A stretch of DNA of 24,000 bases from Gammaproteobacteria bacterium (GCA_009937525.1 JAACFE010000029.1:1778-25777); one strand, 5' to 3'; shown: positions 1,568 to 24,000, numbered from the stretch's first letter. Notes: generated by a model not told the origin, from the letters alone. Program-made: numbers and translations.

Positions 1568-3157
1568 CTAGTGACCGCCACCTCCGCCGGACGCCCTCAC
1601 ATTGGAAGTCGCAAAAGCGTCGTTGTTGCCCGGGTTCGGGTCTGTTCCCGGCGGTCCGGCGATAACCGTCGCGCTCCAGTCGATGGTTCTGCCGGACGTG
1701 TTGATCGTGAAGATCTGGGTAAAGGAAGCAGTTTCGCCCGCAGAGAGCTCTTCGATGTCGAAGACCCACTCTCCGAGTGTTCCTTCTGCACCGGTGGCAA
1801 CCACCGTAACGGTGCCAAAGGCCTCATCCGGACCCAGGTTGCCGACGTTGATGAAGAACTCCCTTTCACCGCCGTTCACGTAGTTCTTTGGCACCTGCAA
1901 GCCGGACTGCTCGCTGATCGCGAGGTCATACAGGATATCGCCTGAAGGTACACAAGGAACCGCGGTCCCATACAGATCCGCATTCGGAATCGGCCAGTCG
2001 TGCATGAAGTTGATCACCGCACGCGAGTCATCGGCCGCCACTGCGAATCCCCCGATGTTCTCGCCGTAATAAGTCGGATCGGCCATCAGTTCAGGTACGG
2101 CTGCGAGGATCGGTCCCTTCGCTATTTCGAAAGTGAGGGGTTCTGCCGTAAGAACCCGGAGGTACTCGAATATGCCTTCGTCTGTCTGATCAAACTCCGA
2201 CCAGATGTACGGCGGCGCGGGGAGTGCGCCAAACGTATCGGAACGGCTGTACGCATATCCCAGCACTCCGCCACCGTCGTCGTAGCTCGCGTAGTCCAGG
2301 AAGCACTTCTCTACCTGCTGGATCGTACCCTGCACCTCTTCCCGGTAGTTCTCGCATACCTTGGGAAGGATCGTCGGCGTGACGTCCAGACCCATGAGCA
2401 TGTTGAGATAGGCCACCATGTCCACGTTGAACTCGCCGCCCTTGTCAGAGGCGACGCCCAGTCCCCTGGCCGCGGTGTCCAGGACATCGGCATCTTCCGG
2501 CAGATCAACCCCGATGCTGCCCGTCATCATCAGTTGCCGGTAGACCGCCAGGTTCTGCAGCGGTGAGTCGATGGTGCTCGTTATCGTGTCCTCATCGTCT
2601 CCGCAGTTGCTGGCCACCATCCGTCCGGCGGGATCCAGGCTCGTGCTGTCGGCCGTGGCCAGTTTGACGACCACGTCCTCCAACTGGGCCTCGAATACCG
2701 ATTCAGGAGAGCGTGCCTCGTTGATACGGCCGAAGTCGACCTCGCGCGTATAGGCTCCGAAAAATGCCTCTACGGCACAGTTGTACTGGTCAACCGGAAT
2801 CAACCAGCCGCCGTCGACCGCTGTGCTTGCCGTGGGGACGACGACCCTGTCTTCCGGCTCGGTCCAACCGTCATACGAGAACTCTTCCTCCGCAAGGGGC
2901 TGCCAGCACTCTCCGCCCCAAACCGTCGCACCGGTTTCGGGATTCGGCACTTCGACCGGATCGGACGGGATGGGGACGCCATTGTCATAGCGATAGAGGA
3001 TGATGAGGTCCCCGAAGTCCGGGGCCCCTTCGTCGCCTCCACCGCCGCCCCCGTTGCCCCCGCCACCACCATGGCCCTGGGCGACGGCTGTGCCGCTCAG
3101 GCAGATAGCGCCGGCTGCGAGTGCGCTGAGTAAAGTAAGAAGCAGTTTAGTCTTCAT
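1568..3157 (-). CDS. secreted protein of unknown function with an N-terminal poly-Gly/His tract, a C-terminal CARDB-like domain and a GGGGGH C-terminus
   Basis: ORF 1568..3244. I prefer the internal ATG at 3157 because AAGGAGGTG lies 6 nt upstream. That start gives MKTKLLLTLLSALAAGAICLSGTAVA/QGHGGGGGNGGGGGGDEG, a clean signal peptide. The C-terminal roughly 100 aa (NVGNLGPDEAFGTVTVVATG...LSAGETASFT...DPNPGNNDAF) match my memory of the CARDB adhesion-domain pattern. The protein ends ...RASGGGGGH. Confidence 0.85.
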   Translation of the reverse strand: MKTKLLLTLLSALAAGAICLSGTAVAQGHGGGGGNGGGGGGDEGAPDFGDLIILYRYDNGVPIPSDPVEVPNPETGATVWGGECWQPLAEEEFSYDGWTEPEDRVVVPTASTAVDGGWLIPVDQYNCAVEAFFGAYTREVDFGRINEARSPESVFEAQLEDVVVKLATADSTSLDPAGRMVASNCGDDEDTITSTIDSPLQNLAVYRQLMMTGSIGVDLPEDADVLDTAARGLGVASDKGGEFNVDMVAYLNMLMGLDVTPTILPKVCENYREEVQGTIQQVEKCFLDYASYDDGGGVLGYAYSRSDTFGALPAPPYIWSEFDQTDEGIFEYLRVLTAEPLTFEIAKGPILAAVPELMADPTYYGENIGGFAVAADDSRAVINFMHDWPIPNADLYGTAVPCVPSGDILYDLAISEQSGLQVPKNYVNGGEREFFINVGNLGPDEAFGTVTVVATGAEGTLGEWVFDIEELSAGETASFTQIFTINTSGRTIDWSATVIAGPPGTDPNPGNNDAFATSNVRASGGGGGH

Positions 3158-3235
3158 AATGTCCACCTCCTTTGTATAGATCATCAGTGGTTGATGAAGA
3201 TGTAATCCCTCTATCGTGTAGTCTGCCGGTGTCCT

Positions 3236-3283
3236 GTTTCTCACGTATTTCCGAAGCGTGTGAAATTGTTACAGTGTGTTTCC
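3236..3283 (-). promoter_or_regulatory. copy 1 of the 48-bp four-half-site operator, facing the gene that starts at 3157
   Basis: Plus strand: GTTTC tcacgt ATTTC cgaagcgtgtgaaatt GTTACA gtgt GTTTCC. Same half-site offsets (0, 11, 32, 42) as the other three copies. 78 nt separate it from the ATG at 3157. Confidence 0.6.
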
Positions 3284-3401
3284 TGGAAGCCAGGTACGGG
3301 CGTTCGTTTGCGGAGGGCGGTTTCCGATAACGGGGCCGGGACGGACCGGCAGGACAATCAGGCGCCTGCGAGCCATTAACTGTTTTCGTTGATTCGTGGA
3401 G

Positions 3402-3431
3402 GGCCAGCGAGAACCTGCGCCCTCGCTGGCC
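3402..3431 (-). terminator. possible terminator hairpin downstream of the 3483..4871 gene
   Basis: GGCCAGCGAG-(10 nt loop)-CTCGCTGGCC, about 50 nt after the stop at 3483 on the minus strand. No clear U-tract. Confidence 0.3.
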
Positions 3432-3482
3432 GAAAGTGACGTGGTGCAAGCGCACCGCGCCACTCAGTCCTTCCAACTGCGG

Positions 3483-4871
3483 CTAGTGGTTGCCGCCACC
3501 GCGGCCGCCGCCACCGGTGTGGCTTGCGGCATCAGTCTGGGTCGCGGAATCGACGTGGCCACCACCACCACCTCCGCCGCCACCACCACCACCGGCGCCA
3601 ACGGCATCCCTCGCGACGATGCAAAGGTCGATGTAGCTAAGGTTGTAGGTGGAATTGACGACCGGAACATACAACGCCTCGGATTCACCGTCGTCGGGTA
3701 ATGCGATGGCCGTGTTGAATGCTGTCCGCGGAAGTTCGCGCACTTGCGCCGGCACTGCCGGCGGTGCGCTGACCGGCGCGTTCTCGTCGTCGAATACCAC
3801 CTCGTCACCCGGAGTGTAGAAGGTCAAACGCCACCAGCCGGTCTTCAACCACCCGGCGCCGCATACTGACTCGGTGTTGACGCTCTTCATTGGCCAGTTG
3901 TAACCGTAGACGTACTTGCCGCCGACGCTGAGCTCGACACTGTAGGGAGCATCCCGCCATGTGCAGGCGCCCTCCCAGTCCGAACCGGTCCACGTGCTCA
4001 GCACGGGCGCTCCGAGTTGCTGCACAACGACTTCGCCTTCGCCGTCTTCACCGCCACCGGGTTGCGGACACTCTGCGCTGTCCGGCTCCATCTTCGCGAT
4101 GTTCAGCCGTGCGTTGTCGGTCTTGATGATCTGGAATGGCGAGTCATAGTTGTATGACACCAATTCCTCGGCCCGCACGCCCCAATGCTCGCTTGTGCCC
4201 TGGCCGGACACGTGCCACATCTGGAAGCCCACCTTGCAGTCAGCCTCCGGGTCAGCACTCGCATTCTCACAGGTGCCGAGCGTGGGATCGAAACCTGGAA
4301 TGCGGCTGCTGTAAGGCTGGGTCTCGACACGAATCTGAGACCGCGATGTCCAGGACCTGGCTTCAAGGGCGTCACCCCAGTCCACATAGGCTACGGAGGC
4401 CGGACCATCTATGCCGTCCTCGTCAGCCCACCAGTCGTTGTCGACGACCTTCTGCCAGTAGATACGCGACACCGATTCACCGTAGCAGGGTGCATCGGTC
4501 GGCACGGTGCATTCTTCCGCATCCAGATAGAGAGTCGGTTTCATCAAGTCGTCCACGCAGGACGTATTGGGGTAGCTAAATGCTCCGGAGACCTCCTTTT
4601 TGTTGCAACCAAAGGAGTAGTGCTCGCCGCGCACGGAATCCGCAGGTGGACTCCAATTTGCCGGAATCGTGTTTGTCGTGTCTGTCAAATTCGCGGGCAG
4701 TGATAGGTTGTTCCCGGCCTCTTCCTCGCCACCACCCGGGCCGCCTTTGCACGGCGGGCCGCCCATGTCGATGCACCATTGAGGTGCGGCACTCGCCACG
4801 CCACCAAAGCCGACTACCATGGCCACGGCTGCGCCTGCCAGCGCAATCGATAAACGTTTGATAATCGTCAT
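3483..4871 (-). CDS. secreted Cys-rich protein of unknown function with a (Gly)12-His tract and a GGGNH C-terminus
   Basis: Full ORF in the track. AGGAGGG lies 6 nt upstream of the ATG at 4871. Signal peptide MTIIKRLSIALAGAAVAMVVGFGGVASA/APQW, followed by GGPPCKGGPGGGEEEAGNNLSLP. The C-terminus is AGGGGGGGGGGGGHVDSATQTDAASHTGGGGRGGGNH. I recognise no catalytic family. Confidence 0.85.
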   Translation of the reverse strand: MTIIKRLSIALAGAAVAMVVGFGGVASAAPQWCIDMGGPPCKGGPGGGEEEAGNNLSLPANLTDTTNTIPANWSPPADSVRGEHYSFGCNKKEVSGAFSYPNTSCVDDLMKPTLYLDAEECTVPTDAPCYGESVSRIYWQKVVDNDWWADEDGIDGPASVAYVDWGDALEARSWTSRSQIRVETQPYSSRIPGFDPTLGTCENASADPEADCKVGFQMWHVSGQGTSEHWGVRAEELVSYNYDSPFQIIKTDNARLNIAKMEPDSAECPQPGGGEDGEGEVVVQQLGAPVLSTWTGSDWEGACTWRDAPYSVELSVGGKYVYGYNWPMKSVNTESVCGAGWLKTGWWRLTFYTPGDEVVFDDENAPVSAPPAVPAQVRELPRTAFNTAIALPDDGESEALYVPVVNSTYNLSYIDLCIVARDAVGAGGGGGGGGGGGGHVDSATQTDAASHTGGGGRGGGNH

Positions 4872-5002
4872 TTTGATCCCTCCTGGATTCGGTATTTAAT
4901 GAGTCCCTTGCCTTTAACGGGCTTGCCTTTCGCTGCAACCTCACCTCCTTCCCATGTCCTGGGGCCTTCTTCAGGCCAGTGTATATATCCTGTCCGGGTC
5001 GT

Positions 5003-5050
5003 GTTTCTTACGTATTTCCGCGCGGCGCAAAATTGTTACAGTGTGTTACC
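5003..5050 (-). promoter_or_regulatory. copy 2 of the 48-bp operator, facing the gene that starts at 4871 and abutting the response-regulator start codon
   Basis: Plus strand: GTTTC ttacgt ATTTC cgcgcggcgcaaaatt GTTACA gtgt GTTACC. 131 nt separate it from the ATG at 4871. A TATATA hexamer at 4982-4987 lies 15 nt beyond half-site A on the minus strand and is a candidate -10. The element ends 1 nt before the regulator ATG at 5052. Confidence 0.6.
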
Positions 5051-5051
5051 T

Positions 5052-5789
5052 ATGGACGCTGGACGACGTGCGACTCACGCCAGCGATTCACATCTGCTGG
5101 TTGTGGACGACGACAGGGAGACCCGCGAGCTCCTGTCGCTTTACCTGGGGCAACAGGGTTTCGACGTTGCCGTCGTCGAGGACGGCAAGGCGATGGACGC
5201 CTGGCTTGCGGACAACTCCACCGACCTGGTCATACTGGACCTGATGCTCCCCGGCGAGGATGGACTGTCGATCGCGAGGCGCCTGCAGAGCGATCACAAG
5301 CTGCCTATCGTGATGATCTCGGCGCGAGGCGAGGAACTCGACCGCATCGTAGGACTCGAGGTCGGCGCGGACGATTACCTGCCCAAACCGTTCAATCCGC
5401 GCGAGCTGTTGGCGCGCATCCGGGCAGTGTTGCGCCGCAGCGGTATGTCCGACGAATCGGAATCCGACCGCGACGCAAGCTACAGATTCGGCGAATTCCG
5501 TTTCGACGATCAACGGCGCGTTTTGTACCGCGGCGCCGAGGACATCGATCTTTCGCGGGCGGAGTTCGACCTGCTACAGGTATTCGTGCACCACCCGAAC
5601 CGGGTGCTGAGCAGGGACCAGATCATGGACTGCCTCAGCGGCGGCGACCGGAATCCCTTCGACCGCAGCATCGACGTGCGTGTCACGCGCCTGAGACACA
5701 AGATAGAAGACGACCCCGCCGACCCGAAATTCATTCGCACGATCTGGGGCATCGGTTACCAGTTCACGCCGCGCGGAGACGCAACGTGA
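5052..5789 (+). CDS. OmpR-family response regulator (receiver plus winged-helix DNA-binding domain)
   Basis: HLLVVDDDRETRELL..., LVILDLMLPGEDG (Asp codon 5238-5240), PIVMISARGEELDRIVGLEVGADDYLPKPFNPRELLARIRAVLRR and SIDVRVTRLRHKIEDDPADPKFIRTIWGIGYQF closely parallel E. coli OmpR. I chose the start at ATG 5052. The 4899 start would add 51 non-homologous residues across the divergent promoter. No Shine-Dalgarno is visible. Confidence 0.9.
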   Translation: MDAGRRATHASDSHLLVVDDDRETRELLSLYLGQQGFDVAVVEDGKAMDAWLADNSTDLVILDLMLPGEDGLSIARRLQSDHKLPIVMISARGEELDRIVGLEVGADDYLPKPFNPRELLARIRAVLRRSGMSDESESDRDASYRFGEFRFDDQRRVLYRGAEDIDLSRAEFDLLQVFVHHPNRVLSRDQIMDCLSGGDRNPFDRSIDVRVTRLRHKIEDDPADPKFIRTIWGIGYQFTPRGDAT

Positions 5790-7276
5790 CAATTTATCCG
5801 CGTTCGCTGCTCGGTCGGACCGCGATTACGATCGCCCTCACGCTTCTCGCCTTCATGGCGATCTCGATGGCCGCCGCCGTGTATTTCGTATACAGCCCGA
5901 TGGCGAAACGGGCGGCAGACGATTTTGCCGCAGTCATAGTATCGGCCGCCCATTCACTGCAGAGCCTGCCTGTGGAGATGCACGGGGATCTCAAGAATCA
6001 GCTGATGCAGGATCACGGACTGATCGTCGCTGAACAACCATTCGAGTCAATCGAGACCACCTCGGAACTGCCTTTCTACCCGTTCTTCCATGAATCGCTC
6101 GATGAGAAGGCCGGCACAGACCTGCGCATTATCGAACCTGTGAACAGTCCGATCATCTGGGTGGACGTGCCCGCCCATGGCAAGGTATACAGGCTCGGCT
6201 TCGACAAGGAACGGCTGGGCACCAATCCGCCGGTCGTACTGATAATGGCGGTCGGCGTCGGTGCATTGCTTACCTTGATTGCAAGCCTGCTCGAAGTGCG
6301 CAGAGTTGTCCGGCCACTGAAGCAACTATCGGATGCCGTGAAGAAAGTGGCACGCGGAGGCGGCGTGCCGCAGATTCCCGAGGAGGGTCCGGAGGAGATC
6401 GCCAACCTCGCCCGAACTTTCAACCGCATGTCTTCCGACCTGCAGCAGCTGTCGGAAAACCGCACGGTGATGATCGCGGGCATCTCGCACGATCTTCGCA
6501 CGCCATTGACCCGCCTGGGCCTCGCGGTCGAGATGCTCGACGAGAACTCGAATCCCGAACTCATCGCACGAATTCGGCACAACCTCGATACGATGAACAA
6601 CCTGATCCGGCAGTTCCTGCAGTTCTCGCAAGGCGTCGAGGGCGAATGCCCGGTGCAGCTGGATCTCTGGCAGATGATCGAATCGCTTGCGGCCGATCTG
6701 AAGCTCGAAGGTTCCGAGCTGGTACTTCACCGAAGGGATCCTCCCTGCGTCTACTTCGCCGACGTCGTCGCCCTCGAGCGCGTCCTGGCGAATCTGCTGA
6801 AGAACGCGGCGCAGCACGGAATGGGGAAGCCCATCAACATCAGCCTGCACTGCAACGACGAAGAGGTTGCTATCGAAATAGCCGATCGCGGACCTGGCAT
6901 TCCACCCGAGGAAGTTCAGGCCGTGTTCCGGCCATTCCACCAGCTCGGATCAGAACGCGCTCAACCGTCCGAAGGTAGCGGTCTCGGTCTCGCCATAGCA
7001 AACCAGCTCGCGTTGAAACACAACTGGACCATCCAGCTGCTGCCTCGGGATGGTGGAGGGACAGTGGCCAAACTCTCCCTCCCGCCGGGGCAGCGCTTCG
7101 GGCTATGCGGATCTTCAGCGCAGCGCGGGCAGATATCGCTTAACCTGCAGGCCGGCGCCCCAGTCGGCGCCGCTGTCGGTGAATCCCTTGAAGACGAAGC
7201 CCTGCAGACGCCAGTCAGCGCTGATGCGGTTCGACAGGAAGACACTGAGCTCCTGAGTCGGGTCGGCACCGATTGA
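5786..7276 (+). CDS. EnvZ-like sensor histidine kinase (2 TM, periplasmic domain, HAMP, HisKA, HATPase_c)
   Basis: GTG at 5786 overlaps the regulator stop (GTGA). TM1 is TAITIALTLLAFMAISMAAAVYFVY and TM2 is PPVVLIMAVGVGALLTLIASLL. H-box ISHDLRTPLTRL (His codon 6488-6490), N-box LLKNAAQHG, G1 DRGPGIP, G2 GSGLGLAIA. There is no in-frame stop until 7276, so a tail of about 60 aa overlaps the convergent OMP gene. Confidence 0.88.
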   Translation: MTIYPRSLLGRTAITIALTLLAFMAISMAAAVYFVYSPMAKRAADDFAAVIVSAAHSLQSLPVEMHGDLKNQLMQDHGLIVAEQPFESIETTSELPFYPFFHESLDEKAGTDLRIIEPVNSPIIWVDVPAHGKVYRLGFDKERLGTNPPVVLIMAVGVGALLTLIASLLEVRRVVRPLKQLSDAVKKVARGGGVPQIPEEGPEEIANLARTFNRMSSDLQQLSENRTVMIAGISHDLRTPLTRLGLAVEMLDENSNPELIARIRHNLDTMNNLIRQFLQFSQGVEGECPVQLDLWQMIESLAADLKLEGSELVLHRRDPPCVYFADVVALERVLANLLKNAAQHGMGKPINISLHCNDEEVAIEIADRGPGIPPEEVQAVFRPFHQLGSERAQPSEGSGLGLAIANQLALKHNWTIQLLPRDGGGTVAKLSLPPGQRFGLCGSSAQRGQISLNLQAGAPVGAAVGESLEDEALQTPVSADAVRQEDTELLSRVGTD

Positions 7277-7909
7277 CGATTCGCGGTAGTCGAAGAACAT
7301 GCCGGCTCTCGTGTGCCCATTGAATTTGTAGATGCCGCCTGCCGAGGCCAGTAGCGCGTCGTCGAGCACCGCGCCGGGCGGTTGCCCGCGGAATTTGTAG
7401 CCGATCGAGCCTATCCAGGTGACACGGTCTGAGAACTTGAGAAAATCGGCCAGGACCGTGAAATCATTCTCGCCGGTTCCGAGACCCTTGTCGACGTCGG
7501 CCGTGCCGAACTTGACCTTGCCGGTGAGGTCCATTGCAAAGCCGAGTCGCCGATTGCGAATAACATCGTAGACCGTCACGGCGGCGATCACGTCGCCGAT
7601 GCCGCTGTTCGTAACGATGTCCCCGCTACCGGGGATCGGTTCGCCGCCCGGACCCGTGATTACGGTTCCCGCGGGCGCCCTCACGCTAAGGTACGGAACT
7701 GTCAGGCGAAACGACAGCCGGCTGAAGTCCATCGTGGCCTTCAGCGGCACGTAAAAGTCCTCGATCTCGGTGTCGCCGCCGTAGGTGCCCGTCGTATATT
7801 CCGCGCCGGCAGAGAGCGAGAACCGTGGTCCTTCGTCCTGCGCCGCCACCGTCGTACCGGCAAGCAGGATCAGGCAGCCGAGCAATGGACTGTTCTGTAT
7901 TAACTTCAT
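7115..7909 (-). CDS. outer-membrane beta-barrel protein (resembles the 'transporter / MetA-pathway of phenol degradation' OMP type; family assigned from memory)
   Basis: ORF 7115..7957. I prefer the internal ATG at 7909 because GGGAGA lies 5 nt upstream. That start gives MKLIQNSPLLGCLILLAGTTVAAQ/DEG, a signal peptide. The longer form would begin inside the terminator hairpin at 7929-7951. Alternating hydrophobic strands rich in Gly and aromatics throughout (FSLSAGAEYTTGTYGG, LSFRLTVPYLSV, WIGSIGYKF, GGIYKF). Confidence 0.75.
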   Translation of the reverse strand: MKLIQNSPLLGCLILLAGTTVAAQDEGPRFSLSAGAEYTTGTYGGDTEIEDFYVPLKATMDFSRLSFRLTVPYLSVRAPAGTVITGPGGEPIPGSGDIVTNSGIGDVIAAVTVYDVIRNRRLGFAMDLTGKVKFGTADVDKGLGTGENDFTVLADFLKFSDRVTWIGSIGYKFRGQPPGAVLDDALLASAGGIYKFNGHTRAGMFFDYRESSIGADPTQELSVFLSNRISADWRLQGFVFKGFTDSGADWGAGLQVKRYLPALR

Positions 7910-7928
7910 CGTCGTCTCCCGGGAAAAG

Positions 7929-7951
7929 GGGGCCGGACGTTTGCCGGCCCC
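7929..7951 (-). terminator. intrinsic-terminator-like hairpin between the Asp-Arg-repeat gene and the OMP gene
   Basis: The minus strand reads GGGGCCGG-caaacgt-CCGGCCCC followed by CTTTTCCC. It starts 33 nt after the stop at 7984 and ends 19 nt before the OMP ATG at 7909. Confidence 0.5.
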
Positions 7952-7983
7952 AGTCAAGAGGTTACCGAATACGGGGGACGGGA

Positions 7984-8631
7984 TTATTCGGCCTCCTCTA
8001 TGTCGAGCTTGAGGGCTTTTGCCCTAAGCTCCATTTGCTCACGATGCTGTGCCTGAAACTTTTCGCGTTCCTTTTCCGAGTCCATGTGGCGCAGCTGTTC
8101 GCGATACTGATTTCGCTCCTGCACAGTCATTAGTCCGCTGCCATAAATGGCTCCCTGGCCGGGAGGCACGAGGTCCTCACCCTGCAATTGCGCACGTTCC
8201 TGCATCTTTGATTCATGCTGAATCTGGAAGTGTTCGCGAGCCTGGTTGGTCTCCATATTCATGAGCTGATTACGATATTGCTTCAGCTCTTCTTCGCTCA
8301 TCAACGTGCTGCCGTAGATGTCTTCGTCCCGCAGGCTCGCCGGGTCGGTGACATGCAGACGGTCACGATCCTGGACGCGGTCCCGGTCCTGGTCCTGATC
8401 GTGTCCCCTAGACTGATCGCGATCGCGATCCTTGGAGTCGGCCATTGTGTAGTCCCTGTCACGATCCCGGTCCTGGTCCATATCGCGGTCGTAGGTGTAG
8501 TCACGATCCTGATCCATCTGTCGGTCACGGTCACCGCTTCCACCGCTCTGTCCGTGCTGTGCGCCAACGGCCATGAACATGAGCGCCACTATCGACGTCA
8601 GGATGATGCTGATAGATAGTCTGTGTCTCAT
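7984..8631 (-). CDS. periplasmic protein with an Asp-Arg (DRDRDQ) low-complexity region and two tandem helical modules of about 46 aa
   Basis: AAGGAGG upstream of the ATG at 8631. Signal peptide MRHRLSISIILTSIVALMFMAVGA/QHGQSGG. Residues 33-91 are almost entirely D, R and Q. Two repeats, IYGSTLMSEEELKQYRNQL...FQIQHESKMQERA and IYGSGLMTVQERNQYREQL...FQAQHREQMELRA, match at 22 of 46 positions in my hand alignment. Confidence 0.8.
   Translation of the reverse strand: MRHRLSISIILTSIVALMFMAVGAQHGQSGGSGDRDRQMDQDRDYTYDRDMDQDRDRDRDYTMADSKDRDRDQSRGHDQDQDRDRVQDRDRLHVTDPASLRDEDIYGSTLMSEEELKQYRNQLMNMETNQAREHFQIQHESKMQERAQLQGEDLVPPGQGAIYGSGLMTVQERNQYREQLRHMDSEKEREKFQAQHREQMELRAKALKLDIEEAE
8359..8535 (-). 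repeat. coding low-complexity repeat (imperfect GTCRCGATCCYGGTCC-like units encoding DRDRDQDRD)
   Basis: Recurring strings on the plus strand: gtcacgatcctgg (8362), gtcccggtcctggtcctgatc (8380), gatcgcgatcgcgatcc (8415), gtcacgatcccggtcctggtcc (8458), gtcacgatcctgatcc (8500). Confidence 0.7.
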
Positions 8632-8739
8632 TCTCCGATCCTCCTTTAATCATTCGTGCTCCTGATCGCGCTCTCCAGACGCTTTGTGGCAGTATCGAAT
8701 GGAGATTGTCGACCCATGGTAGGAATGTGCAGTGAATAT

Positions 8740-8787
8740 GTTTCCGGCCAATTTCCGAAATGCCTGAATTTGTTACAGACTGTTTCC
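8740..8787 (-). promoter_or_regulatory. copy 3 of the 48-bp operator, facing the Asp-Arg-repeat gene that starts at 8631
   Basis: Plus strand: GTTTC cggcca ATTTC cgaaatgcctgaattt GTTACA gact GTTTCC. Offsets identical to the other copies. 108 nt separate it from the ATG at 8631. Its TTGTTA (8770-8775) with TATATG (8794-8799, 18-nt spacer) could also act as a plus-strand sigma70-like promoter for mtnA. Confidence 0.6.
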
Positions 8788-10584: not shown

Positions 10585-11451
10585 CTACAGGTACACCGCG
10601 GGTGTAACAACATGGGAGATACCAGCCTCGCGCAACCTTGCGGCAGCCCTTTCTACACCTGCCTTCGGCATCTTCTCCCACTCGAGTGCCTTCGGTCGGA
10701 CGCCGTGGTGCTGAAAAGCATTGAGCTTGACCCGAACGTCGCCGCCGAGCGTTCTGACGAAATTGATCAGTCCGTCGAGTTCTTCGTCGCTATCCGTTAC
10801 TCCGGGAACCAGCAGGAAACGCAGTTCGTAGAGTTTTCCAGCTTCGTGCAGAAAGCGAGCTGACTGCAGGCTCTTTTGGTGCCCTTTGCCCGTCAGGTTG
10901 CGGTGGACGTCGTCGTCAAAGCTCTTGATATCGATCATGACGCCGTCGGTAACCGGCAACAGCGACTCCCACCCGGCCGCGCCGAGATGACCGTTGCTGT
11001 CGATGAGGCAGTCGAGCCCTGCCAGCTCGGCGTCCGACTTGATCGCCTCGAACAGGGCGATGATGAACCCGATTTGCCTGGTCGGCTCACCGCCCGACAC
11101 CGTAACCCCGGACAGGAACGGCAAGTGCTCGCGGATCAGCTCGAGGATGTCGGATACCCTATATTCGCGGACCATCGGATTGGCGTCGATCGGGCAGGCT
11201 TCGAGACAGTCGTCGCACAGGTCGCAGGTCAGCGGGTCGAAGACGATCCGCCCGTCCACCAGCGACAGTGCGTCCGCGTGACAGGCTGGAACGCATTCAC
11301 CGCAGTGATTACACTCGCCGATGGTATGGGGATTGTGGCAGGCCGTGCAGTTGAAGTTACAACCCTGCAGGAAGATCACGAACCGGTTGCCCGGCCCGTC
11401 TACGATCGAATAGGCGAGTACCTTACTGACCGTAGCCCGGGGAGAGTTCAT
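10585..11451 (-). CDS. yjjW: glycyl-radical enzyme activating protein, YjjW family (radical SAM with two extra ferredoxin-type clusters)
   Basis: VDGPGNRFVIFLQGCNFNCTACHNP contains the CX3CX2C radical-SAM motif. It is followed by CNHCGECVPAC and CDLCDDCLEAC (two CX2CX2CX3C motifs) and by VTVSGGEP, the SAM-binding GGE. The gene overlaps the 3' end of the glycyl-radical enzyme gene by 29 nt. Confidence 0.9.
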   Translation of the reverse strand: MNSPRATVSKVLAYSIVDGPGNRFVIFLQGCNFNCTACHNPHTIGECNHCGECVPACHADALSLVDGRIVFDPLTCDLCDDCLEACPIDANPMVREYRVSDILELIREHLPFLSGVTVSGGEPTRQIGFIIALFEAIKSDAELAGLDCLIDSNGHLGAAGWESLLPVTDGVMIDIKSFDDDVHRNLTGKGHQKSLQSARFLHEAGKLYELRFLLVPGVTDSDEELDGLINFVRTLGGDVRVKLNAFQHHGVRPKALEWEKMPKAGVERAAARLREAGISHVVTPAVYL

Positions 11452-12958
11452 TGCCCACCACGCGTGGCTTCCGGTCGAGTATGCCGGTCATGTCGGCAGC
11501 TTCCGCCCCGAGCACTGTCGTGTTCGTGCGGGAGCCCTGTCGGTCGTTGAACTTCCGAATATCCGAAAGCCGGACCATGTAGCCGGTAACCCGCACGAGG
11601 TCGTTGCTGGCGACGTTCACCGTGAACTCGCGGAAGCCACTGGCAAAAGCGCCCTTGCACAACTGCACCAGCGCTTCCGGATTGTTCGTGACGCTCTCGT
11701 CCACCGTGAGTATCTCGCTGATCCCCGCATCGTAATACTGATGATGCGGCGCGAGCGCCTGCACGTGCGTCACCGGGTCCGGCTCGGTGCCATAGGGGAT
11801 GCGGACGCCGGGCGTCGCATCGACGTCGTCGCTGAGCCCCGCCTGCGAGTGCAGCAATGCGTGGCCACGCCAGACTTTGTCGAGACGCCGCTTGCGCACA
11901 GCCTTCGCGAGTGTTTCCGAGATCCTGTGGCCGAGCGCATTCGCTTCTTCATCGAATCCGTAGCGGCCATCGCGTCTTTCCTTGTCTTGCAGAACGTTGA
12001 CCGCTTCCGCCATGGCAAAGACGCCGAACATCGCGGTAAACCGTTCCTTCTCGATCCAGCCTTCCTTCACGAGGAAGCTGTCGAAGAATCCGGACCCGTC
12101 GAAGAGGTAGTCGATGCGCGCCTCAGTGAGACGGAAATTGAGTTCGAGGAAATAAGGCAGGGTGTCCTCGAAGAATTCCCGCTCGCTACCGGATCGGTTC
12201 GCGACTTCTTTCAGGTTGACGCGCGTAAGCGTGGATGCGCCTCCTGCCACCGGCAGCACGTTGTAACAGCTGACGATACCGTAGCCACGCGCGTCAAATG
12301 CATCGGCATGTACCACGTGGTTGGCGATGTGGGGCTTGCAGCACTCCGCGATATTCTTTCCGGCTATCACGAGAATCTCGTCGCCGCTGATCTCCGGGTC
12401 GTAGAGCAACGTGAGATTGGGTGCTATTTGCTTCAGCTCCGCGTCAACGCGCAGGATCGCGCGCGCGACGCGGTTGTCGGTCGGGCCGATGTTCGCGTGC
12501 ATGAACGCATCGGGCAATGTGCGGTCCAGGTAACGCCAGAAAAGCCTGATCTTCTCGTAAAGCGTCTCATCGCAAACGCCATCGCAGAACGGCAGCAGCA
12601 ACTCGTCGAGCTGGCCGATATAGACGGGCATGCCTGTCACCGACGGGACGTGGTGGTAAGCGATCATCAGGGTGTTGATAGCTTCGTCGAGCGTGACAGG
12701 TAGCGGCAACTCCAGGTACTCGCTGCCGTTTCGCATCAGAACGCTGTAATCCGGCAGAACATAGCGTGGCTTGTACGGTGCATGGCCTTCGAACATGTCG
12801 CAGATAACCCGCTCATCGAGTGCTTTTTGGGTTTCGGCATCGAGAGCCGGATAGCCCAGCATGTTCTCGGCTTCGAGCGATAGGTAGCGCGCTTTCTGCG
12901 CGGGGCTTAGCGTCGCGTCGTTAGTGATGCTGCGTAGCTTGCGGAGAGTGTCCTGCAT
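11423..12958 (-). CDS. yjjI: YjjI-family glycyl-radical enzyme (function unknown)
   Basis: ORF 11423..13102. I prefer the ATG at 12958 because GGAGCG lies 6 nt upstream. That start gives MQDTLRKLRSITNDATLSPAQKARYLSLEAENMLGYP. Length is 511 aa. The C-terminal glycyl-radical motif DLVRVTGYMVR has its Gly codon at 11582-11584. The gene is paired with a YjjW-type activase, as in E. coli yjjI-yjjW. Confidence 0.88.
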   Translation of the reverse strand: MQDTLRKLRSITNDATLSPAQKARYLSLEAENMLGYPALDAETQKALDERVICDMFEGHAPYKPRYVLPDYSVLMRNGSEYLELPLPVTLDEAINTLMIAYHHVPSVTGMPVYIGQLDELLLPFCDGVCDETLYEKIRLFWRYLDRTLPDAFMHANIGPTDNRVARAILRVDAELKQIAPNLTLLYDPEISGDEILVIAGKNIAECCKPHIANHVVHADAFDARGYGIVSCYNVLPVAGGASTLTRVNLKEVANRSGSEREFFEDTLPYFLELNFRLTEARIDYLFDGSGFFDSFLVKEGWIEKERFTAMFGVFAMAEAVNVLQDKERRDGRYGFDEEANALGHRISETLAKAVRKRRLDKVWRGHALLHSQAGLSDDVDATPGVRIPYGTEPDPVTHVQALAPHHQYYDAGISEILTVDESVTNNPEALVQLCKGAFASGFREFTVNVASNDLVRVTGYMVRLSDIRKFNDRQGSRTNTTVLGAEAADMTGILDRKPRVVGNELSPGYGQ

Positions 12959-13071
12959 GGTGTCGCTCCGGTGCGTGGTGCCGACCATCTCTATTCTAGC
13001 TGAAATCCGAAACAGATCGGTTCGCCAGCTCGCGCTATCATCGGGTCTCCCTGCCTGCACCGGAGAGCACC

Positions 13072-13893
13072 ATGTGCCGCTGGATCGCCTACTCGGGTAC
13101 ACCCATCTATCTCAACGAAGCCGTGTTCGAACCGGAACATTCTCTGATCGTTCAGAGTCTCAGCGCGAAGTCCAGCGAAACGACCACCAACGGTGACGGC
13201 TTCGGCATCGGCTGGTACAACGACAGGGAGTTTCCCGGCGTGTTCAAGGACGTCAGGCCCGCATGGAACGACGGCAACCTGCTCGCGCTTTCGCAGCAGA
13301 TCAAGGCGTCGCTATTCCTGGCTCACATCCGCGCAGCGACCGTCGGTTCCGTCCAGCGCAGCAATTGCCACCCGTTTTCCCATGAGAACTGGCTATTCGT
13401 GCACAACGGCGCGATCGAGGGTTACGAGCGGATGCGGCGGGACCTGATGTTCGCCATCGCGCCGGAACTTTTCAATTTCGTCGAAGGCACGACCGATTCC
13501 GAGATCATGTTCTACCTGGCCCTGACTTTCGGCATGGCCGGTGACGTCGCCAGCGGTATCGCCCGTATGGCCGGATTTGTCGAGATGCTCGGCGAGCAGA
13601 ACGGCATCGAGCACCCCTTGCAGATGTCGCTCGGCATCAGTGACGGCAAAAACCTCTACGCCGTGCGGTATTCGAGCGCCCGTGAATCCCGTTCGCTGTT
13701 CCACAGCAAGGATGTGGAGGCGTTGCAGGACGTGACACCGGAGGCCGACCGGGTCTCGTCGAAGACCTGCGCGATTGTCTCCGAACCCCTGACCGGCCTT
13801 GTCGATGCCTGGCAGGAAGTGCCCGAGTCGAGCTTCCTGACCATCGCCAGGGGCAAGGTTCATCTCGAAGAATTCGTGCCGCGCCGGCCCTGA
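13072..13893 (+). CDS. class II (Ntn-type) glutamine amidotransferase, stand-alone (YafJ/EgtC-like)
   Basis: MCRWIAYSGTPI gives an N-terminal nucleophile Cys2. NGDGFGIGWY, AHIRAATVGSVQRSNCHPF and WLFVHNGAIEGY are typical class II GATase blocks. GGAGAG lies upstream of the ATG. Confidence 0.85.
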   Translation: MCRWIAYSGTPIYLNEAVFEPEHSLIVQSLSAKSSETTTNGDGFGIGWYNDREFPGVFKDVRPAWNDGNLLALSQQIKASLFLAHIRAATVGSVQRSNCHPFSHENWLFVHNGAIEGYERMRRDLMFAIAPELFNFVEGTTDSEIMFYLALTFGMAGDVASGIARMAGFVEMLGEQNGIEHPLQMSLGISDGKNLYAVRYSSARESRSLFHSKDVEALQDVTPEADRVSSKTCAIVSEPLTGLVDAWQEVPESSFLTIARGKVHLEEFVPRRP

Positions 13894-22647: not shown

Positions 22648-22695
22648 GGACACAGAATGTAACAAATTGAACACACTTCGAAACTCCCGGGAAAC
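22648..22695 (+). promoter_or_regulatory. copy 4 of the 48-bp operator, inverted relative to copies 1-3 and facing the plus-strand gene that starts at 22772
   Basis: The reverse complement of 22648-22695 is GTTTC ccggga GTTTC gaagtgtgttcaattt GTTACA ttct GTGTCC. Offsets are the same (0, 11, 32, 42). 76 nt separate it from the ATG at 22772, close to the 78 nt of copy 1. Confidence 0.55.
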
Positions 22696-22771
22696 AAAGT
22701 TGCGATAGGCTCAGCCTGAACCGGTAGATAGGTGTCGTCGGCCACCAGCCATCGAATGGAGGGACGCTGCT

Positions 22772-24000
22772 ATGCGAATCACATTTCTACCGCATCTTTG
22801 GATGCTGCTTCTCTGCGTATCGAGCCAGGCGGAAGCTCCCCAGACCGAACTGCTTTTTGCGCCGGACGCCGTCAACCTCACCCCCGCAGTGGGCACGACG
22901 GCCAATAAGGCGCGTTTACTGAGACTGACGGATGGAACCCTGATAGCAGCCTGGCACGAGGGCGTGGACGTGGCTCACGGGGCCTGGAGCCTCGATGGAG
23001 TCGTTTATGCGCCCCGAGATATTTTCATTGTTGCCTCGCCGGACGGCGGGGCCTCCTGGAGCAATCCGCTCAATGTCTCGAATACTGCGAGCCTGACTGA
23101 CGCGTCGGTCTTCTACGACAGAAACGGGGACGGCACAGGCCTGGCCAATTATCCGGGCGACTCTGACAAGGCGACCATTTTCGCTTCGGGCAAGAACCTC
23201 GTCGTCACGTGGAATGACACGTACTGTGGCGACGGCATTCACGGCCCGGCACGGTACCAGGGCTCTCTGGGAATGATCGAGGTACCGTATCACTGCCTGT
23301 ACGCCGCACGCGCGACGGTTTCGTCAGGCAACGTCAAATTGATTGCTGTCAACAGGTTGACGGACGGGACCCGGGACGTCAAAAACGAAATAGCGCGCGG
23401 AACGGGCGCGGGCTTCGCGCTGGCCTGGCAGGAAGATCCAGCCGGTTTGCAGCTGGGTGAGGCTCGCGGAGAAGGTGACGGGGCGAGCGGCGCCAGGGTG
23501 ACCCACGGTACGGACATATGGTACGCGTGGATCATGAAATCGGAGTTCGCGGATGCCGAGAAGTCCTGGCATGGGCCGGTCGCGATAAGTGACAACTTCG
23601 ACTACGACACCGAAACCTTAATCGGCGGCGGGGCATCACGGCCCATCATGGCAATGGCTGGCTCGCCCGCCTATGCGTTGCTCGTCTATGAAGAGACGAA
23701 GAACAGTTCCGGGGTAGACGTCGGCAAGTATGTGCGGTTCCACCAGTTTCCGTTCAACGCTCCGGAAGTATCCGCGGCCGGTGTCATTATCAGTACTCCG
23801 GGCGAAAATGGCCGCCGCGCCCGGATCATAGCGACTTCCACTCCCGGGAAAGCTCACGGTACTCGCATGGTGCTCATGTGGCGGCAGGGCGAGGGCATCC
23901 AGGGTGCGCCCGCTGATTTCATGATGCGGATCGCTTCAGTGCCATCGGGCACGGATCTCGACAGTGTTCCCAACGCGGGCTTCCGCGTGGAAGATCTGTG
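22772..24000 (+). CDS. secreted BNR/Asp-box (sialidase-like beta-propeller) protein, 5' part only
   Basis: Absent from the ORF track because it has no stop inside the window. GGAGGG lies 8 nt upstream of the ATG at 22772. MRITFLPHLWMLLLCVSSQAEA/PQ is a signal peptide. The Asp-box is IVASPDGGASWSNP (SxDxGxxW). I hand-translated 22772-23160 in frame and the remainder was read open to the window end. Confidence 0.8.
   Translation, partial: MRITFLPHLWMLLLCVSSQAEAPQTELLFAPDAVNLTPAVGTTANKARLLRLTDGTLIAAWHEGVDVAHGAWSLDGVVYAPRDIFIVASPDGGASWSNPLNVSNTASLTDASVFYDRNGDGTGLANYPGDSDKATIFASGKNLVVTWNDTYCGDGIHGPARYQGSLGMIEVPYHCLYAARATVSSGNVKLIAVNRLTDGTRDVKNEIARGTGAGFALAWQEDPAGLQLGEARGEGDGASGARVTHGTDIWYAWIMKSEFADAEKSWHGPVAISDNFDYDTETLIGGGASRPIMAMAGSPAYALLVYEETKNSSGVDVGKYVRFHQFPFNAPEVSAAGVIISTPGENGRRARIIATSTPGKAHGTRMVLMWRQGEGIQGAPADFMMRIASVPSGTDLDSVPNAGFRVEDL

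Follow-up and report, generated by a model that had tools for sequence, protein, structure and literature searches.

Which protein reads a 48-bp element that recurs with fixed internal spacing in the intergenic DNA around an OmpR/EnvZ-like two-component system, and what does its binding do to the neighbouring genes? The element occurs four times in a 24,000-nt stretch of DNA from a gammaproteobacterium (GCA_009937525.1, JAACFE010000029.1:1778-25777), which was analysed at its full length and is called the window here. Our answer, which we hold with considerable confidence on the strength of sequence comparison, is that the four repeats are predicted binding sites of the adjacent OmpR-like response regulator, placed in activator-dependent promoters of genes for secreted proteins. 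The original prediction had seen in these repeats a candidate regulon, and comparative genomics supports that view through conservation, linkage to the regulator gene and agreement with OmpR motifs. The regulon and its operator are new to the OmpR family; they are of a familiar kind, and the mechanism is not a new one. A limited literature search around OmpR motifs, AmgR, leaderless autoregulation of OmpR, ActJK, and tor and pho boxes found no published description of this element.

All four 48-mers were present at the predicted coordinates (Table 1) and agreed exactly with the pattern GTTTC-N6-RTTTC-N16-GTTACA-N4-GTKWCC from which the original prediction started. Allowing up to three mismatches to this pattern brought up no further copy in the window, and 100 dinucleotide-preserving shuffles of the window gave no match to it. 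Copies 1-3 were also the top direct-repeat family in an unbiased repeat search of the window. A 64-bp position weight matrix (PWM), built solely from sites in other genomes, gave the four sites 47-76 bits; no other position in the window exceeded -11 bits, and the highest score across 50 shuffles was -6.7 bits. The window contains exactly four copies, and no weaker ones trail off below them. Each of the four lies between genes, and the matrix scan placed none inside the genes of the window.

The inner arrangement of the element proved to be as described. The half-sites start at element positions 1, 12, 33 and 43 and form direct repeats with a 10-11-bp period, that is, two pairs spaced 11 and 10 bp with a 16-bp gap between them. 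Every copy has the same polarity, with the GTTTC end toward the gene in four of four cases, and the measured gaps to the ATG (78, 131, 108 and 76 nt for copies 1-4) lie within the predicted range of 76-131 nt. It was the length that had to be revised: the 48-bp copies are real, but the unit is longer, 64 bp, and includes a -10 element. As a separate observation, a weak C-G-n-A trend follows the second half-site (element positions 17-20 on the plus strand; for example, window 3252-3255 and 8756-8759). It amounts to 0.45-0.63 bits per position and yields short palindromes such as ATTTCCGAAAT or TTCCGGAA; either a further, inverted half-site or a demand on shape could lie behind it.

The 64-bp unit is seen in an alignment of 51 non-redundant reference-genome sites, taken from among the matches listed, with less than 80% mutual identity and oriented toward the regulated gene; the counts that follow refer to this set. 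The half-sites were conserved and the spacers were free. Beyond the half-sites, position +12 after GAAAC was A and position +16 was T in all 51 sites, the base after the last half-site was A in 41 (giving GAAACA), and a T preceded the distal half-site in 49. The A-N3-T, the A of GAAACA and the distal T are all positions outside the search pattern. The hexamer at +11 to +16 reads TATCAT, CATAAT or TATAAT in AT-richer lineages and is weak in GC-rich ones (CAGGAT, CAGACT). These two invariant bases, A in the second place of the hexamer and T in the sixth, are the two that matter most in a sigma-70 -10 element. The -35 position is occupied by AT plus variable spacer, unlike TTGACA, and a consensus scan of these intergenic regions found no -35/-10 sigma-70 promoter. 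Read toward the gene, the layout begins with the distal pair, GAAACA-N3-TGTAACAAWTT with a 10-bp period, and continues with an 11-bp spacer that varies among sites and the proximal pair GAAAY-N6-GAAAC, whose period is 11 bp; after a further 10 bp comes the nAnnnT hexamer. Taking the -10 element as -12 to -7, the half-sites fall at about -70/-65, -60/-55, -38/-34 and -27/-23, which are four of five consecutive slots on a single face of the helix.

This geometry has a well-studied counterpart. According to the PhoB box rule, the tandem repeats are followed, after 10 bp, by a TAN3T -10 element (PMC1906773). Since the proximal repeat pair stands 10 bp before nAnnnT, in keeping with this rule, each copy can be read as a self-contained activator-dependent sigma-70 promoter of about 64 bp. 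What the cassette shares with pho-box promoters is confined to its proximal pair, namely 11-bp-period tandem repeats 10 bp upstream of TAN3T and no -35 element (PMC1906773). By contrast, the PhoB half-site is a different one (CTGTCAT), the cassette has an obligatory second, distal pair, none of the cassette-linked genes is phosphate-related, and PhoB ranks as the fifth-best family for the regulator. Just past the points where transcription of targets 1 and 2 is predicted to begin, we also noticed short hairpins at 3180-3198 and 4963-4977 of the window, ATCATCA...TGATGA for target 1 and GGCCT-TCTTC-AGGCC for target 2. The first of these seems to covary with TTCAG-CCA-CTGAA in two other loci (L014 and L032), and both could be 5'-terminal stem-loops that stabilise the mRNA.

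The adjacent regulator is itself closest to OmpR. Its best NCBIfam model is OmpR (NF007005/NF007004 pair test) with 283.7 bits against a cut-off of 331, and the next family scores 204. Over 234 amino acids it is 51% identical to E. coli OmpR, and the recognition helices are near-identical (SIDVRVTRLRHKIE in the regulator, SIDVQISRLRRMVE in E. coli OmpR). For the kinase encoded next to it the best NCBIfam model is EnvZ, aligned over its full length at residues 2-433, with 237.1 bits against a cut-off of 415 and 140 bits for the next model. The original prediction had spoken of an OmpR/EnvZ-type system. This stands in so far as OmpR and EnvZ are the best models by about 80-100 bits; it goes too far in that both equivalog cut-offs are missed, so OmpR/EnvZ-like is the safe wording, and the two proteins may form a paralogous subfamily. 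Among the open reading frames (ORFs) called in the window, Pfam scans brought up no second transcription factor, in line with the earlier statement that this is the sole regulator in the neighbourhood. In the source contig, a pair of genes for an extracytoplasmic function (ECF) sigma factor and FecR lies about 4 kb past the left end of the window.

The words of the operator are likewise those of OmpR. The E. coli motif from chromatin immunoprecipitation with exonuclease treatment (ChIP-exo) is KWWGTTACAT, with the repeat GTTACATTTTGTTACAT (PMC5438342). In Salmonella, chromatin immunoprecipitation with sequencing (ChIP-seq) gave TGTWACAW, and mutating TGTTACAA abolished OmpR binding at tviA (PMC3586657). 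Similar OmpR boxes have been predicted in Acidithiobacillus (PMC9861516). As had been suggested from GTTACA and GTTTCC, the sequence AAWTTGTTACA, TGTAACAA on the other strand, agrees with the published E. coli and Salmonella motifs. It is TTGTTACA and TGTAACAA that agree; the remaining three half-sites have the variant form GTTTC/GAAAC. The known boxes of E. coli and Salmonella (ompF F1-F3, ompC C1-C3, tviA) use the same words, and the distal pair here has their 10-bp period. E. coli OmpR sites are contiguous arrays that end near -40. The cassette instead has two pairs with one vacant slot between them, and its proximal pair overlaps the -35 position. The targets differ as well, being secreted proteins of no assigned function, and no classical porin gene carried the cassette in the loci that we saw. 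Upstream of E. coli ompR, the exact TGTAACAATTT is shared and the full cassette is absent (matrix score -15 bits). In that region of E. coli K-12 (locus L127, about 1680-1690, minus strand), TGTAACAATTT is followed 5 nt later by GAAAT, toward ompR; the two could be a remnant or a relative of the distal half of the cassette.

If the adjacent regulator binds the element, the two should travel together across genomes. In a relative whose p462 protein is 77% identical (L007), the gene order is the same and all three regulator-near copies are kept, with every half-site base retained and the spacers diverged (for example, CGAAGCGTGT has become CCCGGCGCAT). The orthologous copy 1 in L007 and L079 shows this too, with half-sites kept and differing spacers, and a 65% relative (L008) has kept the copy upstream of p462. 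An unrelated metagenome-assembled genome (MAG) with a 61% p462 homologue (L009) has neither the motif nor an adjacent regulator. The site therefore tracks the lineage of the regulator and not the target gene, and its absence there fits a lineage-specific regulon.

A wider view came from two scans. In GTDB, with one genome per species, the reduced pattern TTTC-N7-TTTC-N11-AAWTTGTTACA (19 specified bases) matched at least 117 loci. About half of the matches listed were scattered chance matches in AT-rich genomes, and at least 58 sites also carried the bases that the pattern had left out (G1, R12, GTTTCC/A). The full-motif sites among the matches listed belong nearly all to gammaproteobacterial MAGs, of the Woeseiaceae, Sedimenticola, Thioalkalivibrio, Lysobacterales and Chromatiales. 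By BLASTX of the flanks, 37 of the 58 listed full-motif sites are directly upstream of an orthologous pair of response-regulator and histidine-kinase genes in the same orientation (regulators 52-87% identical), and 9 more are within 3 kb of such a pair. The remaining ones are upstream of homologues of DRD215 (the target of copy 3), of the DUF11 or choice-of-anchor O proteins, or of genes for other envelope proteins; the layout of copy 3, upstream of DRD215, recurs in L007, L052, L059 and L126. A metagenome scan with a stricter pattern, which included the -10 bases, gave at least 120 loci. The pooled loci hold at least 185 sites, and 105 of the 185 listed have an orthologous regulator gene on the distal side. 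Over the 1.43 Mb of retrieved loci, the matrix scores were bimodal, with 234 sites at 40-90 bits and a thin tail at 10-40 bits, and the scan recovered extra copies beyond the strict-pattern matches. The weight-matrix check that the original prediction had proposed was thereby carried out over these loci and the window, and the sites in the window came through it as discrete and intergenic; the other computational checks proposed there also favoured the prediction. The element is widespread and not special to this genome.

Downstream of these sites, the same kinds of gene return. The largest group (at least 50 sites, 47 of them divergent from the regulator gene) encodes either small secreted proteins with an EF-hand pair, recognised by Pfam, or Q/N/R-rich, Gly-tailed proteins. 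DRD215 homologues follow at least 44 sites, none of those listed being beside a regulator gene. There are at least 20 sites with DUF11-protein homologues, at least 13 with small 'MSxEER' proteins ending in GYGSGYGSRQGGG, at least 10 with choice-of-anchor O homologues, at least 9 with a lipoprotein family, at least 8 with p462 homologues and at least 3 with a resistance-nodulation-division (RND) adaptor; a few among the matches listed precede other envelope proteins, such as one like cytochrome c peroxidase. Conservation upstream of orthologues had been named as a check, and all four target families of the window were indeed found again with the element in relatives, at 41-100% protein identity. 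The arrangement in many relatives resembles the cpxP-cpxRA loci, where a two-component operon is divergent from the gene of a small periplasmic protein with the boxes between them; here the product of the divergent gene is a secreted protein with an EF-hand pair or a small one rich in Q/N/R and Gly. Unlike in the cpx case, no CpxP/Spy homology was found for DRD215 or the small proteins, and CpxR and CpxA are much weaker model matches. That the small divergent proteins have a feedback role is pure conjecture.

The same architecture also reaches outside the Gammaproteobacteria. Among the matches listed it is present in seven Rhizobium genomes, including the cultured R. rhizogenes NBRC 13257, as GTTACA-N3-TGTAACAAATT-N11-GAAAA-N6-GAAAC-N10-CAGGTT. 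On its distal side is again a regulator-kinase pair with OmpR and EnvZ as best models, the regulator being 49% identical to that of the window. Three further features of the Rhizobium loci (L033, L037, L054, L091, L106, L117 and L119) may be recorded. A strong GC hairpin, GCCGTCCCTCCGGAGCGAGGGGCGGC, follows the -10 element of the cassette; a fifth GGAAAC stands just upstream of the distal pair; and the next long ORF, pseudouridine-synthase-like, starts about 240 nt from the cassette, which may therefore first give rise to a small RNA or a small ORF.

Taken together, the motif match, the similarity of the proteins and the persistent linkage to the regulator gene make the adjacent regulator by far the likeliest binding protein. 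In the mechanism that we propose, the EnvZ-like kinase would phosphorylate the OmpR-like regulator, and two head-to-tail regulator dimers would occupy the two half-site pairs. The proximal dimer would replace the missing -35 element and recruit RNA polymerase through direct contact, comparable to PhoB at pho boxes. As a result, the genes for secreted envelope proteins would be turned on, namely those for the DUF11 protein (with p583), p462, DRD215 (with OMP264) and the choice-of-anchor O protein.

Does the regulator also control its own gene? The original prediction had noted that the regulator start abuts copy 2, and the ATG at 5052 does lie 1 nt after the far end of that copy. The same is true of most relatives: in 94 distinct regulator-adjacent sites among the matches listed, the start codon follows the element after 1 nt in 70 and at 0 nt in 6. 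It is ATG, occasionally GTG, and the N-terminal peptides encoded behind it vary widely. No Shine-Dalgarno sequence precedes these abutting starts, where the preceding bases are TGTTTCC (76 of the 94 listed sites). An in-frame stop occurs within the element in 29 of 74 listed sites, so there the start of the ORF cannot be farther upstream. In the other lineages and in Rhizobium the cassette is kept, but a leader of 15-50 nt that includes a Shine-Dalgarno sequence precedes the start. Because the distal pair ends 1 nt before the regulator start and the promoter must overlap the operator, occupancy of the operator would feed back on the regulator's own transcription.

Three candidates for the regulator promoter can be read from these sites. 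One is CAnnnT at element positions 37-42, with transcription starting at the ATG and a leaderless product; its bases double as half-site bases. Another is the strand-symmetric -10 element, which would be shared with the target promoter. The third is a perfect TATAAT on the regulator strand, 32-37 nt left of the element, which occurs in 24 of the 34 listed sites of the EF-hand/QN group; the leader would then be about 73 nt long and include the operator. The window's own family has no good hexamer at this last position. The upstream TATAAT was observed at L017, L039, L045, L065, L077, L086, L097, L110, L123 and in metagenome relatives, at a fixed distance from the element amid varying sequence, and is probably a constitutive regulator promoter that reads through the operator. 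A bolder possibility, to which we give a tentative and rather doubtful place, is that in the Woeseiaceae-like clade the operator doubles as core promoter of a leaderless regulator mRNA, making one 48-bp cassette a two-way switch. On this view, the distal half-site pair would hold the -10 element within it, as CAnnnT, and transcription would begin at the ATG, 1 nt beyond the element. The divergent gene for a secreted protein would be activated by phosphorylated regulator bound to the proximal pair, and binding to the distal pair would act directly as a gate on the start site of the regulator itself. If true, this two-way design has been conserved for long, given 76 of the 94 listed sites and regulators down to about 52% identity.

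The closest precedent for copy 2 is the tor system, in which four direct repeats of an OmpR-family regulator likewise stand in a short divergent intergenic region. One pair of tor boxes is beside the regulator gene and the others are beside the target promoter, as in copy 2. Read directly from E. coli, the layout is torR ATG, 18 nt, box 1-box 2, 11 nt, box 3, 12 nt, box 4, 27 nt, CATAAT. The placing of the boxes between torR and torCAD is as described in PMC9239176, and the torR-adjacent pair serves autoregulation, as stated in the title of Ansaldi et al. 2000 (cited in PMC5294996). The sequence of the boxes and their spacings differ from those of the cassette, the start codon is 0-1 nt from the element here against 18 nt in torR, and the four-site cassette is also found at promoters without a neighbouring regulator gene.

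Several points weigh against the reading of the element as an activator-dependent promoter worked by the adjacent regulator. The A-N3-T motif is identical on both strands, and by base counts the target-strand reading is only modestly nearer to TATAAT; given this symmetry, the orientation of the promoter rests mainly on copies 1, 3 and 4, which have a gene on that side alone. Half-site orientation is ambiguous too, GTTWC being GWAAC on the other strand, and cannot be fixed against the E. coli sites. Regulator and kinase are both under the NCBI OmpR/EnvZ equivalog cut-offs. Target homologues outside the lineage, as in L009, are without the element, and target function does not predict the site. 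Finally, repression is possible with a regulator at -38 to -23, and we infer activation solely from the missing -35 element. On an alternative that we consider improbable, the regulator would act as a repressor bound across the -35 region of constitutive promoters, whose genes would come on once it is released. Under our -10 assignment the proximal pair does span -38 to -23, and the distal pair of copy 2 covers the regulator start region, a position that is repressive in the tor system. However, there is no TTGACA-like -35 element and no sigma-70 promoter in the consensus scan, the -10 hexamers in GC-rich lineages have the weakness of promoters that need an activator, and the geometry equals that of PhoB-activated promoters.

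We think it quite improbable that the operator belongs to a different OmpR/PhoB-family regulator encoded elsewhere, with the adjacency due to cross-regulation or coincidence. TGTT-type half-sites are recognised by several family members (PhoP, ArcA and RstA boxes), paralogues are possible elsewhere in the genome since our reading covered the window and contigs, and the regulator is below the OmpR equivalog cut-off. Nevertheless, in 105 of the 185 listed sites the element directly adjoins the beginning of an orthologous regulator gene, in lineages with regulators only 49-60% identical to that of the window and with Rhizobium included, which weakens this alternative because so persistent a linkage is the usual signature of autoregulation; the OmpR-motif words and the OmpR-like recognition helix also speak for the neighbour. 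Very improbable is an element that acts as RNA (a leader structure, small RNA or riboswitch) or as a promoter of an alternative sigma factor. Copy 2 may be transcribed within the regulator leader, many relatives have the perfect TATAAT 32-37 nt left of the element on the regulator strand, and GAAAC resembles ECF-type -35 words. Yet Rfam gave no match at the gathering threshold, RNAalifold found no conserved pairs in 16 diverse leaders, and conservation comes in 5-6-bp blocks with 10-11-bp spacing and free spacers; at copies 1, 3 and 4 the element is upstream of the predicted -10 and hence would not be transcribed. The gap from GAAAC to A-N3-T is 10 bp against the 16-17 bp of ECF promoters, and direct reading found no GG-N10-GC signature of sigma-54. 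A dispersed selfish or structural repeat without regulatory role, akin to repetitive extragenic palindromic (REP) sequences or miniature inverted-repeat transposable elements (MITEs), is scarcely credible. Several near-identical copies within one neighbourhood would suit it, but terminal inverted repeats and target-site duplications are absent, polarity and distance class relative to gene starts are both fixed, orthologous positions are conserved across genera with the half-sites alone held constant, and the element is never inside the window's genes.

We now turn to the genes that would be controlled. The coordinates of all features are collected in Table 1.

Table 1. Operator copies, predicted -10 elements and genes of the candidate regulon in the window
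Feature	Position	Strand	Details
Operator copy 1	3236-3283	- (pattern read on +)	Upstream of DUF11-domain secreted protein gene; exact pattern match; PWM 70.1 bits
Copy-1 half-sites, four TGTTWC-type	3236-3240, 3247-3251, 3268-3273, 3278-3283		
Operator copy 2	5003-5050	- (pattern read on +)	Between divergent p462 and regulator genes; 59.3 bits
Operator copy 3	8740-8787	- (pattern read on +)	Upstream of DRD215-OMP264 pair, just 3' of kinase gene; 75.8 bits
Operator copy 4	22648-22695	+ (pattern read on -)	Upstream of choice-of-anchor O protein gene; 47.2 bits
Predicted -10 CAGACT, copy-1 promoter	3220-3225	-	10 bp past proximal half-site
Predicted -10 CAGGAT, p462 promoter (copy 2)	4987-4992	-	Invariant A-N3-T, 10-bp gap; read from sequence
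Predicted -10 CACATT, DRD215 promoter (copy 3)	8724-8729	-	Invariant A-N3-T; read from sequence
Predicted -10 TAGGCT, copy-4 promoter	22706-22711	+	Invariant A-N3-T; read from sequence
OmpR-like response regulator	5052-5789	+	Pfam Response_reg 6.9e-29 (receiver), Trans_reg_C 9e-25 (winged-helix)
EnvZ-like sensor histidine kinase	5786-7276	+	HAMP, HisKA, HATPase_c; start overlaps regulator stop (GTGA)
Target 1 (copy 1), 529-amino-acid secreted protein	1568-3157	-	Gly-rich N-terminus; C-terminal DUF11 (Pfam)
p583, 583-amino-acid protein	1-1485, cut by window edge		After target 1; gene order from source contig L001
Target 2 (copy 2), p462, 462-amino-acid secreted protein	3483-4871	-	Gly-rich C-terminal tail; no Pfam/NCBIfam match
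Target 3 (copy 3), DRD215, 215-amino-acid secreted protein	7984-8631	-	D/R-rich N-terminal half; helical-hairpin C-terminal half
OMP264, 264-amino-acid predicted outer-membrane-type protein	7115-7909	-	Signal peptide, alternating beta-strand-like sequence; directly 3' of DRD215
Target 4 (copy 4), secreted choice-of-anchor O protein	22772-24000, past window end	+	NCBIfam NF040591 227 bits, cut-off 125

The translations of all four downstream genes begin with a typical Sec signal peptide, as had been claimed. As to function, which the original prediction had called unknown for all four, three have no Pfam match over the whole protein, one has a C-terminal DUF11 alone, and the product of the gene starting at 22772 matches the NCBIfam family 'choice-of-anchor O'. 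BLASTP found no paralogy among the four target proteins. Target 1 and p583 are probably in one operon, and OMP264, which matched no Pfam or NCBIfam family, is probably co-transcribed with DRD215, the gene pair being conserved in relatives. For p462 we found 390 homologues, and the identical protein is encoded on 23 of the metagenome contigs read, the longest of 35 kb. The AlphaFold model of DRD215 has a predicted local distance difference test score (pLDDT) below 50 for residues 18-93, which are disordered, and of about 90 for the helical part from about residue 100 to 215. This C-terminal half consists of two helical hairpins, each beginning with LM(S/T)xxE, extended LM(S/T)xxE(R/L)xxYRxQL. 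DRD215 had no Pfam match and no PDB match by sequence or fold; the sole PDB profile matches of its N-terminal RD/DRD repeat are eukaryotic RD-repeat proteins (NELF-E). One Joint Genome Institute (JGI) annotation makes DRD215 a CpxP/Spy-type chaperone. We found nothing to support this: there is no match to Pfam LTXXQ, the PDB profile search gives only RD low-complexity repeats, and Foldseek against PDB returned nothing with E <1.

Overall, the targets are mostly hydrophilic and of low complexity, with D/R repeats, Q/N repeats, runs of Gly that close with basic residues or His, and EF-hands. Such features would suit a regulon in which an EnvZ-like sensor governs a response of the envelope, to osmolarity or to cations; this is conjecture, as is an inducing signal of that kind. 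Gly runs followed by basic residues or His appear at the start or end of many cassette-linked proteins, in the window in targets 1 and 2 and elsewhere at L025, L031, L092, L108, L194 and other loci. Examples of such tails are ...ASGGGGGGH, ...HTGGGGRGGGNH, ...GYGSGYGSRQGGGSGGGKGRGH and ...GGGGGGGGRH; they could be a sorting or metal-binding signal.

Some details of the neighbourhood remain to be described. The kinase ORF and the convergent OMP264 gene overlap by 162 nt (7115-7276), an overlap likewise called on related contigs. The EnvZ model stops at residue 433 of 496 of the kinase, and the last ~60 residues are unexplained. Unrelated to the cassette is a cluster at 10585-13102, with genes for a YjjI-like glycyl-radical enzyme and a radical-SAM activase beside mtnA (methylthioribose-1-phosphate isomerase) and a class II aldolase gene. 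The position of mtnA beside copy 3 is an adjacency that relatives have not kept.

What this means for the organisms can be stated at several levels. Proteins with D/R repeats, Q/N-rich and Gly-tailed sequences, EF-hands, DUF11 or choice-of-anchor O domains are tied to one EnvZ/OmpR-like sensor of envelope or osmolarity, and the predicted common signalling pathway gives these secreted proteins a first functional handle. The start codon that abuts the operator offers a clean case for leaderless or otherwise unusual autoregulation. The presence of the cassette in cultured Rhizobium strains makes it testable in culture, and the 64-bp model is usable for annotating the regulon in related genomes. 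The Woeseiaceae and their relatives are known largely from uncultured genomes, and to our knowledge almost nothing is known about gene regulation in this group. A regulon predicted purely from sequence, together with a precise model of its promoters, is a rare way into it.

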